Source: Escherichia coli (GTDB lineage: Bacteria > Pseudomonadota > Gammaproteobacteria > Enterobacterales > Enterobacteriaceae). Taken from it: DNA of 64,000 bases. The stretch lies in assembly GCF_044647545.1 (NCBI RefSeq), contig NZ_CP172818.1; one strand, given 5' to 3'. Shown here in pieces: positions 18,739 through 33,989 of the stretch. A program made the position numbers and the translations under genes. Position 1 is the stretch's first letter. Each line of letters begins with the position of its first letter. Under the pieces are notes generated by a model that searched no databases, was not told where the DNA came from, and saw only the letters and a program-made list of their open reading frames with translations.

Positions 18739-18826
18739 GTTCACTGCCGTACAGGCAGCTTAGAAATTCACTGGTAACATACTCCACCCGCCCACCATGT
18801 TCACTGCCGTACAGGCAGATAAAATG
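18739..18826. CRISPR. orphan CRISPR remnant: two 28-bp type I-F-like repeats flanking one 32-bp spacer, no cas genes in window
   Basis: Repeat 1 GTTCACTGCCGTACAGGCAGCTTAGAAA (18739-18766); spacer 18767-18798; repeat 2 GTTCACTGCCGTACAGGCAGATAAAATG (18799-18826), degenerate at 3' end. Confidence 0.7.
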
Positions 18827-18870: not shown

Positions 18871-18958
18871 TGGCGGTGAGGGGGGGATTCGAACCCCCGA
18901 TACGTTGCCGTATACACACTTTCCAGGCGTGCTCCTTCAGCCACTCGGACACCTCACC
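18871..18958 (-). tRNA. serW: tRNA-Ser (anticodon GGA), class II with long variable arm
   Basis: Reverse complement reads GGTGAGGTGTCCGAGTGGCTGAAGGAGCACGCCTGGAAAGTG...GGTTCGAATCC...CTCACCGCCA; anticodon loop CTGGAAA; 3' CCA encoded. Confidence 0.9.
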
Positions 18959-26115: not shown

Positions 26116-26131
26116 CTGTTAATCCATACAG
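26116..26131 (+). promoter_or_regulatory. LexA (SOS) box CTGTTAATCCATACAG upstream of ftsK
   Basis: CTG-N10-CAG with AT-rich centre, 79 bp upstream of ftsK start; ftsK is known to carry an SOS-inducible promoter (dinH). Confidence 0.6.
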
Positions 26132-26209: not shown

Positions 26210-29200
26210 TTGAGCCAGGAATACACTGAAGACAAAGAAGTCACATTGACAAAGTTAAGTAGCGGCCGCCGCCTTCTGGAGGCGTTGCTGATCCTTATTG
26301 TCCTGTTTGCCGTCTGGTTGATGGCTGCCTTACTAAGCTTTAACCCTTCGGACCCCAGCTGGTCGCAAACGGCCTGGCATGAACCTATCCATAATTTAGG
26401 TGGGATGCCCGGTGCATGGCTGGCAGATACGCTGTTCTTTATTTTTGGCGTGATGGCTTACACCATTCCCGTCATTATTGTCGGCGGTTGTTGGTTTGCC
26501 TGGCGTCATCAGTCCAGCGACGAATACATTGATTATTTTGCCGTTTCGCTACGCATCATTGGCGTTTTGGCGCTCATCCTTACCTCCTGTGGTCTGGCGG
26601 CAATCAACGCTGACGATATCTGGTATTTTGCCTCCGGTGGCGTCATTGGCAGCTTACTGAGCACTACGCTACAACCACTGCTACACAGTAGCGGGGGAAC
26701 TATTGCACTGCTCTGCGTTTGGGCAGCGGGCCTGACGCTGTTCACCGGTTGGTCATGGGTGACCATTGCTGAAAAACTCGGCGGCTGGATTTTAAATATT
26801 CTTACCTTCGCCAGTAATCGTACCCGTCGCGATGATACCTGGGTCGATGAAGATGAGTATGAAGACGACGAAGAATATGAAGAAGATGAAAGTCACGGCA
26901 AACAGCATGAATCACGCCGTGCCCGTATTCTTCGCGGCGCGCTAGCGCGTCGTAAACGGTTGGCGGAAAAATTCATTAATCCGATGGGGCGGCAAACAGA
27001 CGCTGCGTTGTTCTCCGGTAAGCGGATGGATGATGACGAAGAGATTACCTACACTGCACGCGGTGTGGCTGCCGACCCTGACGACGTCCTCTTTTCGGGC
27101 AATCGTGCAACGCAGCCAGAATATGACGAGTACGATCCATTATTAAACGGTGCGCCAATTACCGAACCTGTTGCTGTAGCAGCTGCTGCTACCACGGCGA
27201 CACAAAGCTGGGCTGCACCGGTTGAACCTGTGACTCAGACGCCGCCAGTTGCCTCTGTTGATGTTCCACCTACGCAACCTACAGTAGCCTGGCAGCCTGT
27301 ACCGGGGCCGCAAACAGGAGAACCGGTTATTGCACCTGCACCGGAAGGTTACCCACAGCAGTCACAATATGCGCAGCCTGCAGTGCAATATAATGAGCCG
27401 CTGCAACAACCTGTACAGCCACAGCAGCCGTATTATGCGCCTGCAGCGGAACAGCCTGTGCAACAACCTTACTACGCTCCTGCGCCGGAACAGTCTGCGC
27501 AACAGCCGTATTACGCCCCTGCGCCAGAACAATCGGTGGCAGGTAACGCCTGGCAAGCCGAAGAGCAGCAATCCACTTTTGCTCCACAGTCTACATACCA
27601 GACTGAGCAAACTTATCAGCAGCCAGCCGCTCAGGAGCCGTTGTACCAACAGCCGCAACCCGTTGAACAGCAGCCTGTTGTGGAGCCTGAACCCGTTGTA
27701 GAAGAGACAAAACCCGCGCGTCCGCCGCTTTACTATTTTGAAGAAGTGGAAGAGAAGCGTGCCCGTGAACGTGAACAACTTGCGGCCTGGTATCAACCGA
27801 TTCCTGAACCGGTTAAAGAACCAGAACCGATCAAATCTTCGCTGAAAGCACCTTCTGTTGCAGCAGTACCTCCAGTGGAAGCCGCTGCCGCTGTTTCCCC
27901 TCTGGCATCTGGCGTGAAAAAAGCGACACTGGCGACGGGGGCTGCCGCAACCGTTGCCGCGCCAGTCTTCAGTCTGGCAAATAGCGCTGGACCGCGTCCG
28001 CAGGTCAAAGAGGGGATTGGCCCGCAGTTGCCACGACCGAAACGCATCCGCGTGCCAACTCGTCGTGAACTGGCGTCTTACGGTATTAAGCTGCCCTCAC
28101 AGCGTGCGGCAGAAGAAAAAGCCCGTGAAGCTCAGCGCAATCAGTACGATTCCGGCGATCAGTATAACGATGATGAAATCGATGCGATGCAGCAGGATGA
28201 ACTGGCACGTCAGTTCGCCCAGACACAGCAGCAACGCTATGGCGAACAGTATCAACATGATGTGCCCGTGAACGCAGAAGATGCAGATGCTGCGGCAGAG
28301 GCTGAACTGGCTCGTCAGTTTGCTCAAACTCAACAACAACGTTATTCCGGCGAACAACCTGCTGGGGCGAATCCGTTCACTCTGGATGATTTTGAATTTT
28401 CGCCAATGAAAGCGTTGCTGGATGATGGTCCACACGAACCGCTGTTTACGCCAATTGTTGAACCTGTACAGCAGCCGCAACAACCGAAAGTTGCACCGCA
28501 GCAGCAATATCAGCAGCCGCAACAGCCGGTTGCACCACAGCCGCAATATCAGCAGCCGCAACAGCCGGTTGCGCCGCAGCCGCAGTATCAGCAGCCACAA
28601 CAACCGGTTGCGCCGCAGCCGCAATATCAGCAGCCACAACAGCCAGTTGCGCCGCAGCCGCAGTATCAGCAGCCACAACAGCCAGTTGCGCCACAGCCGC
28701 AGGATACCCTGCTTCATCCGCTGTTGATGCGTAATGGCGACAGCCGTCCGTTGCATAAACCGACGACGCCGCTGCCTTCTCTGGATTTGTTGACGCCGCC
28801 GCCGAGCGAAGTGGAGCCGGTAGATACCTTTGCTCTTGAACAAATGGCGCGTCTGGTGGAAGCGCGTCTGGCTGATTTCCGTATTAAAGCCGATGTCGTC
28901 AATTATTCTCCGGGGCCGGTTATCACTCGCTTTGAATTGAACCTGGCACCGGGCGTAAAAGCGGCGCGTATTTCTAACTTGTCACGTGACCTTGCCCGTT
29001 CACTTTCGACGGTGGCGGTGCGTGTCGTTGAAGTTATTCCTGGCAAACCCTATGTAGGTCTGGAGTTACCGAATAAAAAACGACAAACCGTTTATCTGCG
29101 TGAAGTTTTGGATAACGCCAAATTCCGCGATAATCCGTCGCCATTAACCGTGGTGCTGGGTAAAGATATCGCCGGTGAGCCGGTGGTTGCCGATCTGGCG

Positions 29201-30244
29201 AAAATGCCGCACTTGTTGGTTGCGGGGACTACCGGTTCCGGTAAGTCTGTCGGTGTGAACGCGATGATCCTGAGCATGCTTTATAAAGCACAGCCAGAAG
29301 ATGTTCGTTTCATCATGATCGACCCGAAAATGCTGGAGCTTTCGGTTTATGAAGGCATTCCACACCTGTTAACGGAAGTCGTTACTGATATGAAAGATGC
29401 CGCCAACGCGCTGCGCTGGTGTGTTAACGAGATGGAGCGTCGTTATAAACTGATGTCTGCGCTGGGTGTGCGTAATCTGGCGGGTTATAACGAAAAAATT
29501 GCTGAAGCCGATAGGATGATGCGTCCGATTCCAGACCCGTACTGGAAGCCGGGTGACAGTATGGATGCCCAGCATCCGGTGCTGAAAAAAGAACCGTACA
29601 TTGTGGTGTTGGTGGACGAATTTGCCGACCTGATGATGACGGTAGGTAAAAAAGTGGAAGAGCTGATAGCACGTCTGGCGCAAAAAGCCCGTGCCGCGGG
29701 TATCCACCTCGTACTGGCAACGCAGCGTCCATCGGTTGATGTTATTACTGGTCTGATTAAAGCGAATATTCCGACCCGTATCGCCTTTACCGTATCCAGT
29801 AAGATTGACTCACGTACCATTCTTGATCAGGCTGGCGCGGAATCACTGCTGGGTATGGGGGATATGCTTTACTCTGGGCCGAACTCCACGTTGCCGGTAC
29901 GTGTTCATGGTGCTTTTGTTCGCGATCAGGAAGTTCATGCCGTGGTGCAGGACTGGAAAGCGCGTGGCCGCCCACAGTATGTTGATGGCATCACCTCCGA
30001 CAGTGAAAGCGAAGGTGGCGCGGGCGGTTTCGATGGCGCTGAAGAACTGGATCCGTTGTTCGATCAGGCGGTACAGTTTGTCACTGAAAAACGCAAAGCA
30101 TCAATTTCTGGCGTACAGCGTCAGTTCCGCATTGGTTATAACCGTGCAGCGCGTATTATCGAACAGATGGAAGCGCAGGGGATTGTCAGCGAACAGGGGC
30201 ACAACGGTAATCGTGAAGTGCTGGCCCCACCGCCGTTTGACTAA
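26210..30244 (+). CDS. ftsK: DNA translocase FtsK (N-terminal membrane domain, long Pro/Gln-rich linker, C-terminal motor and gamma domain)
   Basis: 1344-codon ORF starting at TTG ([11 protein letters not shown]); Walker A GTTGSGKS; C-terminal winged-helix gamma region; repetitive PQ linker. Confidence 0.93.
28479..28705 (+). repeat. in-frame 39-bp tandem repeats (about 5.5 copies) encoding [13 protein letters not shown] units in the FtsK linker
   Basis: CAGCAGCCGCAACAGCCGGTTGCACCACAGCCGCAATAT repeated head-to-tail with a few substitutions; a second shorter repeat family ([13 protein letters not shown], 3 copies) lies at about 27400-27540. Confidence 0.85.
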
Positions 30245-33751: not shown

Positions 33752-33770
33752 TACCCAATTTTTCTGAATC

Positions 33771-33797
33771 TAAAAAGCGCCTGCGGGCGCTTTTTTT
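33771..33797 (+). terminator. intrinsic terminator of serS
   Basis: AAAAAGCGCC-TGCG-GGCGCTTTTTTT: GC stem plus 7-nt T run. Confidence 0.75.
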
Positions 33798-33805
33798 GTC
33801 TCCCT

Positions 33806-33819
33806 TTGATACCGAACAA
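33806..33819 (+). promoter_or_regulatory. FNR-type site TTGATACCGAACAA upstream of dmsA
   Basis: TTGAT-N4-AACAA matches FNR consensus TTGAT-N4-ATCAA in 8 of 10 half-site positions; dmsABC is an anaerobically induced operon. Confidence 0.5.
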
Positions 33820-33989
33820 TAATTACGCCTCACTTACACGTAATACTACTTTCGAGTGAAAATCTACCTATCTCTTTGATTTTCAAATTATTCGATATAT
33901 ATAAGCCTATATAGCGACCTGCTATAGAAATAATTACACAATACGGTTTGTTACTGGAATCAATCGTGAGCAAGCTTGAGTGAGCCATT

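Follow-up and report, generated by a model that had tools for sequence, protein, structure and literature searches.

The linker of FtsK has been described as unstructured, as varying in length between species, and as required for full function (PMC5357621, PMC3870252, PMC2680272). In E. coli, this region (FtsKL) comprises ~650 aa and is rich in proline and glutamine, and both normal division and the full resolution of dimers depend on it (Bigot et al., 2004 and Dubarry et al., 2010, as cited in PMC5357621). Contacts with FtsQ, FtsL, FtsI, and FtsZ have been reported for parts of the linker, and mutants of the linker form filaments (reviewed in PMC5357621). The FtsKL literature treats the linker as one domain, while its within-species repeat polymorphism is to be found in the typing literature instead; PMC6113214 makes no mention of the FtsK linker.

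Two of the loci used in strain typing, ms06 and ms07, belong to the Shigella/E. coli MLVA panel of Gorge et al. (2008, J Clin Microbiol 46:1026, as cited in PMC8215070 and PMC4644529). The latter two papers provide the primer sequences and offset sizes for both loci, as well as the alias CVN001 for ms07, and a scheme for S. flexneri lists ms07 as SF12 and ms06 as SF33 (PMC2806262). Alleles published from gel-based PCR typing are 2, 3, and 4 for ms06, and 1, 3, 6, 7, 8, 10, and 12 for ms07. The typing papers examined for these loci neither name ftsK nor discuss a protein. In Salmonella, the MLVA marker STTR7/SENTR2 is a 39-bp in-frame repeat of the ftsK linker that is present in 9.3 copies in S. 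Enteritidis (PMC2430564). An indel of two of the nine ftsK repeats (residues 757–784) separates two S. Enteritidis isolates, and swapping the alleles that differ by these two repeats left survival in egg white unchanged (PMC6137255).

Here we describe two repeat arrays, A and B, that form part of the E. coli linker and correspond to ms06 and ms07, respectively. Their polymorphism is thus already known and ordinary. It has been used to type Shigella, E. coli, and Salmonella strains since about 2007–2008 and carries little weight as a discovery. The arrays are very probably slowly evolving, in-frame 39-bp (13-residue) minisatellites in a disordered Pro/Gln tether, where changes in length would be near-neutral.

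The ftsK gene

The window analysed is a 64-kb stretch of E. coli DNA (NCBI RefSeq assembly GCF_044647545.1, contig NZ_CP172818.1), in which the gene carrying the arrays is ftsK.

26210–30244, + strand: ftsK coding sequence, TTG start, 1344 codons plus stop (ORF list, Pfam, and RefSeq homologues sharing that start)

The length of 1344 codons agrees with the preliminary description of this DNA, and the TTG start matches the RefSeq annotation of ftsK in the closest genome. Four Pfam domains were found above their curated cut-offs: FtsK_4TM (aa 20–191, 5e-42), FtsK_alpha (aa 855–955, 1e-29), the FtsK_SpoIIIE motor (aa 963–1176, 9e-88), and FtsK_gamma (aa 1279–1339, 2.5e-28). The 4TM membrane domain is followed by the Pro/Gln-rich linker and then by the alpha, RecA-like motor, and gamma (KOPS/XerD) domains, which is the composition expected of the FtsK/SpoIIIE family. 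Orthology with ftsK is further indicated by the gene order lrp-ftsK-lolA-rarA, which was read from the ORF list and recurs in the RefSeq context of homologues. The gene is 95–99.5% identical to annotated ftsK in 5,425 of 5,426 complete E. coli genomes.

Two arrays of 39-bp units in the linker

Two families of in-frame repeats had been noticed in the linker, and the sequence, Tandem Repeats Finder, and a repeat search all agree on them. No other tandem repeat in the window scores ≥60. Both arrays are real, although their extents have been refined; array B in particular had been described as ~5.5 copies at 28479–28705.

27422–27535, + strand: array A (ms06, SF33), three in-frame units of 39, 39, and 36 nt with a 13-residue unit peptide, written out as 26 residues for the first two units and 12 for the third; allele 3
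28469–28702, + strand: array B (ms07, CVN001, SF12), six in-frame units of 42, 39, 39, 39, 39, and 36 nt (234 nt in total) with a 13-residue unit peptide
28487–28489, + strand: AAA (Lys) codon inserted in the first unit of array B (unit map, unit 1 compared with unit 7)

Tandem Repeats Finder placed array A at 27428–27531 (period 39, 2.7 copies, 80% matches, score 124) and array B at 28469–28701 (period 39, 5.9 copies, 91% matches, score 341). The suggestion that the repeats are nearly identical at the DNA level holds for array B, the units of which are 87–97% identical and share exact repeats, the longest being 30 nt at an offset of 39 and 35 nt at an offset of 78. It does not hold for array A, where units are just 74–79% identical and the longest exact repeats span 8–11 nt. 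The unit peptide of array B is QQPQQP(K)VAPQ[Q/P]QY. There is a single tyrosine in each unit of array B, and there are two in each unit of array A. When the two arrays were compared by eye, approximately half of the bases and the QQP at the start of the unit were found to be in common, a likeness too limited to establish homology between them.

Array B is 3 nt off the 39-bp ladder because of the AAA codon; once this codon is removed, the opening unit of the array matches that of K-12 exactly in the unit map. The length class of this AAA-bearing array was found in none of the E. coli genomes in our flank-anchored samples. A direct search with the 42-nt unit also returned no match, a result to which the low-complexity filter may have contributed, as the search was run without a control.

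Array B adjoins the start of the motor module, which opens with a 12-residue segment, and lies in a hypervariable Pro/Gln cassette bounded by two conserved blocks. The blocks were identified in an alignment of 13 Enterobacterales linker ends, and their coordinates are approximate.

28397–28453 (approximate), + strand: conserved block of 19 residues on the N-terminal side of the cassette
from 28703 (approximate), + strand: conserved block of 16 residues on the C-terminal side of the cassette

An AlphaFold2 prediction for the array B region, based on a 13-sequence alignment, gave pLDDT values of 41–48 and no DSSP elements over the array. Array B is accordingly predicted to lack stable structure, as would be expected of a disordered Pro/Gln linker.

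Identity with the typing loci ms06 and ms07

The published MLVA primers, as reproduced in later papers (PMC8215070, PMC4644529) on which their identities rest, have sites that bracket both arrays in the window.

27312–27651: ms06 PCR amplicon, 340 bp; forward site 27312–27331 (2 mismatches), reverse site 27632–27651 (exact)
28209–28798: ms07/CVN001 PCR amplicon, 590 bp; forward site 28209–28228 (exact), reverse site 28779–28798 (2 mismatches)

In both cases, the primers lie at the expected offset and enclose a variable 39-bp unit; array A is therefore ms06, and array B is ms07/CVN001. The ms06 amplicon corresponds to (340 − 223)/39 = 3.0 units, and the ms07 amplicon to (590 − 353)/39 = 6.08, or allele 6. 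The extra AAA codon makes the ms07 amplicon 590 bp rather than 587 bp, and there is otherwise no essential difference from the published locus. The published ms06 alleles equal the unit counts that we measured for array A across E. coli, and the published ms07 range of 1–12 covers that measured for array B.

Copy number across E. coli

Copy number was determined in an evenly spaced sample of ~60 of the 5,426 complete E. coli genomes, which falls short of a full census. Megablast alignments with the array or the whole gene were split or shifted by the repeats, and units were therefore counted from unique flanks. Array A inserts measured 112 bp (20 genomes), 151 bp (17), and 190 bp (23), corresponding to two, three, and four units. 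Array B inserts fell into seven length classes, mostly in 39-bp steps: 147 bp (1 genome), 201 bp (1), 240 bp (20), 255 bp (3), 279 bp (28), 318 bp (4), and 357 bp (2; n = 59 genomes). The preliminary description had anticipated that linker length would vary between isolates and had proposed unit counting across many E. coli genomes as the check; copy number indeed differs among the sampled genomes, and the notion of a static ancient repeat was rejected. Differences in ftsK length between strains are normal and should not be taken for errors.

All 11 ftsK alleles inspected (3975–4185 bp) are in frame and free of internal stops, encoding FtsK proteins of 1324–1394 aa. Proteins of up to at least 1421 aa were found in a whole-protein database search, which returned E. 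coli FtsK variants only and hence gave no view across genera. Unit maps of array B display gains and losses of whole units as well as tandem duplications of two units (78 bp). The latter have left footprints in HH45, with a map of 7 8 9 [33 34 33 34] 11 12 compared with 7 8 9 10 11 12 in K-12, and in AST20, where the array opens with [36 37 36 37]. A difference of a single whole unit separates the arrays of FDAARGOS_497 and strain 142.

Array alleles are lineage-specific, and copy number changes slowly and is stable within a lineage. Among the 60 genomes whose flanks are most similar to those of the window, 59 have a seven-unit array B allele, and in the samples all K-12-derived entries share one allele, as do all O157:H7 entries.

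Unit divergence and constraint on the peptide

The 30 distinct 39-nt units of array B encode only seven distinct peptides. Its pN/pS is 0.078 and that of array A is 0.137, compared with 0.05–0.09 for the non-repeat linker and 0.019 for the motor, with values pooling paralogous and orthologous units that are not independent. Between units, pS is 0.39, approximately 5–10 times the 0.035–0.07 seen between strains. Since the units differ mainly at synonymous sites, the arrays can be regarded as old, without rapid homogenisation, and purifying selection acts on the unit peptide, which is constrained like the rest of the linker. This constraint at the peptide level lends interest to a possible phenotypic effect of linker copy number.

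Arrays at the same position in other genera

The position of the Salmonella indel is equivalent to that of array B, and the repeat in both is a 39-bp in-frame linker repeat; the Salmonella marker comes from another genus, has a higher copy number, and is likened to array B from its published description. Our own scan of genome contigs across genera retained 80 loci, with no Salmonella among them. The corresponding position of the linker, flanked by the same conserved blocks, is occupied by arrays of other periods in Superficieibacter (45 bp × 6.8), an Enterobacter (42 bp × 7.4), Leclercia (36 bp × 5.6), and Xenorhabdus (9 bp × 21). Although their units differ in length, a residue that is aromatic or His, in most cases Tyr, keeps returning in these arrays. 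In E. albertii, poly-Ala takes the place of most of array B, and many Enterobacterales in the scan have no array at this position.

Evolution and possible roles of the arrays

In the explanation that we favour, the linker is the tether between the DNA-translocase motor and the membrane domain anchored at the divisome, and each allele merely lengthens or shortens that tether. Copy number shifts by whole units, and at times by pairs of units or partial units. The likely cause, which we infer from the structure of the alleles, would be slippage of the units during replication or unequal homologous exchange among them. The preliminary description had also proposed expansion and contraction by slippage or recombination; the whole-unit and two-unit changes are compatible with slippage as well as with unequal exchange, which would be RecA-dependent. 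With a period divisible by three, no allele disturbs the reading frame, and the tether tolerates changes in length, as the range of natural FtsK proteins (1324 to at least 1421 aa) indicates. The polymorphism would then be near-neutral variation that follows lineage, which could explain why it works as a typing marker.

Some observations sit less comfortably with a near-neutral minisatellite. With its diverged units and short exact repeats, array A is a poor substrate for either mechanism, yet it has three alleles. Near-neutrality is argued from the breadth of natural alleles together with one phenotype assayed in a different genus. The unit peptide is also under strong purifying selection, which makes its sequence no arbitrary spacer, and copy number might therefore matter.

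Copy number could instead be an adaptive tuning knob, in which Tyr-punctuated Pro/Gln units are functional through motor reach, multivalent self-association, or divisome contacts, and their number is selected in each lineage. We consider this unlikely. It would account for the constrained unit peptide, the recurrence of Tyr in each unit and of mostly Tyr in the arrays of other genera, the reported contacts of the linker with divisome proteins and the filamentation of linker mutants, and the lineage-specific alleles, but slow neutral change predicts lineage specificity equally well. It is harder to reconcile with the wide range of copy numbers in healthy natural isolates (147–357 bp inserts in our sample and published ms07 alleles 1–12), the poly-Ala of E. 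albertii, the absence of an array in many Enterobacterales, and the Salmonella allele swap, which had no phenotype in the one assay. Also unlikely is the specific proposal that the Pro/Gln units with Tyr are selected modules, acting as aromatic “stickers” for multivalent weak septal interactions or setting the reach of the motor. If it were true, ms06/ms07 copy number would act as a quantitative control on how division is coupled to chromosome segregation. A similar pattern of aromatic residues in a Pro/Gln context, built from units of other lengths, lies at the same position in several genera.

It is very improbable that the arrays form a hypermutable contingency locus with high-frequency heterogeneity within populations, akin to the phase-variable simple-sequence repeats of pathogens. 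The ftsK arrays resemble such loci in being coding-region tandem repeats that change copy number, and the near-identical units of array B, with their long exact repeats, and the species-wide polymorphism would suit this class. However, a unit of 39 bp is 13 codons and leaves every inspected allele in frame, which makes on/off switching impossible, and the closest relatives nearly all share one allele, so change within lineages is rare rather than frequent. The synonymous divergence between units, well above that between strains, also points to old units without rapid turnover, and the class was rejected for the ftsK arrays.

It is likewise very improbable that the repetitive region was misassembled and that the apparent differences in length are not real alleles. 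In draft assemblies of other species, several contigs do end inside the ftsK linker (L013, L016, L018, L021, L058, and L080), a sign that the region can disturb short-read assembly, but the E. coli set consists of complete-genome assemblies only, its length classes are mostly discrete 39-bp steps with every inspected allele in frame, unit maps are coherent among relatives, and independent gel-based PCR typing gives the same allele series.

A third repeat and spurious ORFs in the linker

The linker contains a third in-frame repeat that had escaped the preliminary description. Its two copies, found by repeat search, are 105 nt apart, are 81% identical in DNA sequence, and encode (D/A) followed by 14 residues.

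28194–28240 and 28299–28345, + strand: two copies of the third in-frame repeat

The motif is present in one to three copies in nearly all sampled Enterobacterales FtsK proteins, and both copies in the window are predicted to be helical in the AlphaFold2 model. It is a conserved linker motif and no VNTR in E. coli.

The repeats had also been credited with long spurious ORFs, in alternative frames and antisense to ftsK, and four are present in the ORF list.

28097–28843, − strand: spurious antisense ORF of 248 aa with a low-complexity, repetitive translation
27330–27701, + strand: similar spurious ORF
27362–27796, − strand: similar spurious ORF
28422–28727, + strand: similar spurious ORF

The antisense ORF at 28097–28843 arises because the CAG/CCG repeat is free of stops. 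Linker repeats of this kind can break short-read assemblies as well as generate spurious ORF calls.

Tandem arrays in the ftsK linker

The ftsK gene in the window lies downstream of lrp and upstream of lolA and rarA. Its product matches FtsK_4TM, FtsK_alpha, FtsK_SpoIIIE, and FtsK_gamma, all above the curated Pfam cut-offs, and the gene shares 95–99.5% identity with the annotated ftsK in 5,425 of 5,426 complete E. coli genomes. Two in-frame repeat families had been described in the Pro/Gln-rich linker, and both are present with a 39-bp period, as demonstrated by Tandem Repeats Finder and by unit maps. We also detected a third in-frame repeat, two copies of (A/D)ELARQFAxxQQQRY 105 nt apart, which the preliminary description had missed.

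26210–30244 (+), ftsK, one ORF of 1344 codons in the window ORF list, TTG start
27422–27535 (+), array A, three units in codon register
28194–28240 and 28299–28345, the two (A/D)ELARQFAxxQQQRY copies
28469–28702 (+), array B, six units in codon register, each ending [P/Q]QY

Tandem Repeats Finder placed array A at 27428–27531 (period 39 bp, 2.7 copies, 80% matches) and array B at 28469–28701 (period 39 bp, 5.9 copies, 91% matches, score 341), and no other tandem repeat in the 64 kb reaches a score of 60. The units had been called near-identical in DNA, which is true of array B (87–97% mutual identity, exact repeats of 30–35 nt) but not of array A (74–79%, exact repeats of at most 11 nt). The long ORFs described in the remaining reading frames and on the complementary strand exist, and their translations are repetitive and of low complexity.

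Both arrays are already known as the VNTR strain-typing (MLVA) loci ms06 and ms07/CVN001. The published primers (Table 1 of PMC8215070 and Table 1 of PMC4644529) each match the window once. Those of ms06 flank array A with an amplicon of 340 bp [(340 − 223)/39 = 3.0], and those of ms07 flank array B with an amplicon of 590 bp [(590 − 353)/39 = 6.08]. The published repeat size is 39 bp for each locus, and the published alleles (2, 3, and 4 for ms06; 1, 3, 6, 7, 8, 10, and 12 for ms07) agree with the copy numbers measured here (PMC8215070; PMC4644529). The MLVA panel containing both is credited to Gorge et al. 2008 (PMC8215070; PMC4644529); ms07 is also named CVN001 (PMC4644529), and the pair appears as SF12 and SF33 in a Shigella flexneri scheme (PMC2806262). 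Their Salmonella counterpart is the MLVA locus SENTR2/STTR7, likewise a 39-bp ftsK repeat (PMC2430564). A difference of 2 of 9 linker repeats at residues 757–784 separates two S. Enteritidis isolates, and swapping their ftsK alleles left egg-white survival unchanged (PMC6137255).

Length polymorphism and unit turnover in E. coli

Because direct alignments through the repeats were ambiguous, we used 600-nt queries comprising 300 nt of unique flank on either side of each array, and measured the inter-flank distance in genomes drawn at even spacing from the 5,426 complete ones.

Inter-flank insert lengths in sampled complete E. coli genomes
Array A (window 151 bp): 112 bp, 20 genomes; 151 bp, 17; 190 bp, 23 (2, 3, and 4 units)
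Array B (window 243 bp): 147 bp, 1 genome; 201 bp, 1; 240 bp, 20, including K-12; 255 bp, 3; 279 bp, 28, including O157:H7; 318 bp, 4; 357 bp, 2

With three insert lengths for array A and seven for array B, copy number is not identical across genomes, and the predicted variation in linker length between isolates therefore holds; the earlier reading is supported and its observation confirmed. All 11 fully read alleles (the window and ten E. coli genomes) are in frame and encode FtsK of 1324–1394 aa; protein database entries for E. coli FtsK run up to 1421 aa. The first array B unit in the window is the K-12 first unit plus an AAA (Lys) codon at 28487–28489, which leaves this allele 3 nt out of step with the usual 39-bp ladder. 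This length class was found in none of the 119 sampled E. coli genomes, a direct search for the variant was also empty, and the closest ftsK (strain 142, 99.5% identical) does not carry the extra codon. In the E. coli genome searches, a few linker matches also fell on plasmid-labelled records; the flank queries gave 8 such places and the repeat-containing queries 27–28.

Coding each distinct array B DNA unit across the 11 alleles gave unit maps in which gains and losses of units have left classic footprints. K-12 reads 7 8 9 10 11 12 and HH45 reads 7 8 9 [33 34 33 34] 11 12, AST20 begins [36 37 36 37], and FDAARGOS_497 (13 35 2 31 4 5 6) and strain 142 (13 35 2 31 4 6) are exactly one unit apart. 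Partial-unit events include a 15-nt QQPQY unit (strain 08-00022) and a 60-nt hybrid unit (LCP30S3_I5). Replication slippage or unequal exchange could account for such changes; the pattern is consistent with both, and a choice between them could only be inferred.

Among the 60 genomes with flanks closest to the window (99.8% identical; one is a strain named ST648), seven units occur in 59, and only strain 142 has six. One allele is common to the sampled K-12-derived genomes and one to those of O157:H7. Synonymous divergence between units (pS 0.39 in array B, 0.51 in array A) far exceeds that between orthologues from different strains elsewhere in ftsK (only 0.035–0.07), so the units long predate the strains and are not quickly homogenised. 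By these comparisons the repeats behave as a slow minisatellite rather than a hypermutable contingency locus, and a 13-codon unit cannot switch expression on and off.

The 30 distinct 39-nt units of array B encode only 7 peptides (pN/pS 0.078) and the 13 units of array A encode 8 (pN/pS 0.137), values that pool non-independent units and allow a qualitative reading only. Across the 11 alleles, orthologous pN/pS is 0.05–0.09 in the non-repeat linker, 0.019 in the motor, and 0.023 in the membrane domain. By this comparison the repeated peptide is as constrained as the rest of the linker. Overall, the polymorphism is a slow, in-frame, and probably near-neutral variation in the length of a disordered tether. 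Some phenotypic effect of copy number is improbable, the small chance we allow it coming from the constraint on the peptide and from the aromatic residues, mostly Tyr, that recur.

The linker across genera

An alignment of 13 linker ends placed array B in a Pro/Gln cassette that is hypervariable and bounded by two conserved blocks, FSPMKxLVDDGPxEPLFTP and (D/E)(S/T)L(I/L)HPxLMRN. The FtsK linker is described as unstructured, species-variable in length, and required for normal division and full dimer resolution (PMC5357621; PMC3870252; PMC2680272). The AlphaFold2 model of this segment, which has pLDDT 41–48 and no secondary structure over array B, agrees with this account. In a one-genome-per-species scan listing 80 ftsK loci, in-frame arrays of differing periods occupy the array B position in several Enterobacteriaceae.

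Arrays at the array B position in other species
Citrobacter sp. FP75: 39 bp × 2.7
Enterobacter cloacae: 33 bp × 2.5
Leclercia adecarboxylata: 36 bp × 5.6
Enterobacter sp. Bisph1: 42 bp × 7.4
Superficieibacter electus: 45 bp × 6.8 (and 39 bp × 4.0 at the array A position)
Serratia bockelmannii: 24 bp × 4.3
Xenorhabdus ehlersii (L026): ftsK nt 1658–1845, perfect (QQP)n, 9 bp × 20.9, 100% identity
Photorhabdus cinerea (L068): ftsK nt 1746–1850, perfect (QQP)n, 9 bp × 11.7, 100% identity

The 9-bp units of the last two, in the pre-motor linker, are of the CAACAGCCG type, and these arrays should be far more slippage-prone than those of E. coli. E. albertii keeps array A and has mostly poly-Ala in place of array B. 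In most sampled Vibrio, Shewanella, and Aeromonas the linker is short and lacks a comparable array there; Photobacterium piscicola departs from this, carrying a 48 bp × 9.2 array further upstream within the linker. Contigs of several draft genomes (L013, L016, L018, L021, L058, and L080) stop within the linker just before the motor, which suggests that short-read assemblies break at the repeat region.

Nearly every Enterobacterales FtsK sampled (L011–L074) has 1–3 copies of the motif (A/D)ELARQFAxxQQQRY in its linker, and the motif forms a 105-bp × 3 tandem array in Pantoea sp. 1.19 and a 93-bp × 2.7 array in Serratia bockelmannii. It was not found in the sampled FtsK of Vibrio, Shewanella, Aeromonas, or Orbales, and no Pfam family spans it. 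Both E. coli copies are predicted by AlphaFold2 to be helical (pLDDT up to about 81).

Other features of the window

In the lrp–ftsK intergenic region, CTGTTAATCCATACAG at 26116–26131 has the LexA-box form CTGT-N8-ACAG and lies about 80 nt upstream of the ftsK TTG; it presumably belongs to the known SOS-inducible (dinH) ftsK promoter. A minimal CRISPR remnant at 18739–18826 adjoins tRNA-Ser(GGA) at 18871–18958 and consists of an Rfam CRISPR-DR4 match (18739–18766), a single 32-nt spacer, and a degenerate second repeat (18799–18826). It resembles the type I-F-associated array site known from E. coli near serW/infA. The stretch 33765–33899 (−) matches the Rfam model of STnc130, an enterobacterial sRNA, over its full length, with 136.6 bits against a gathering score of 55.
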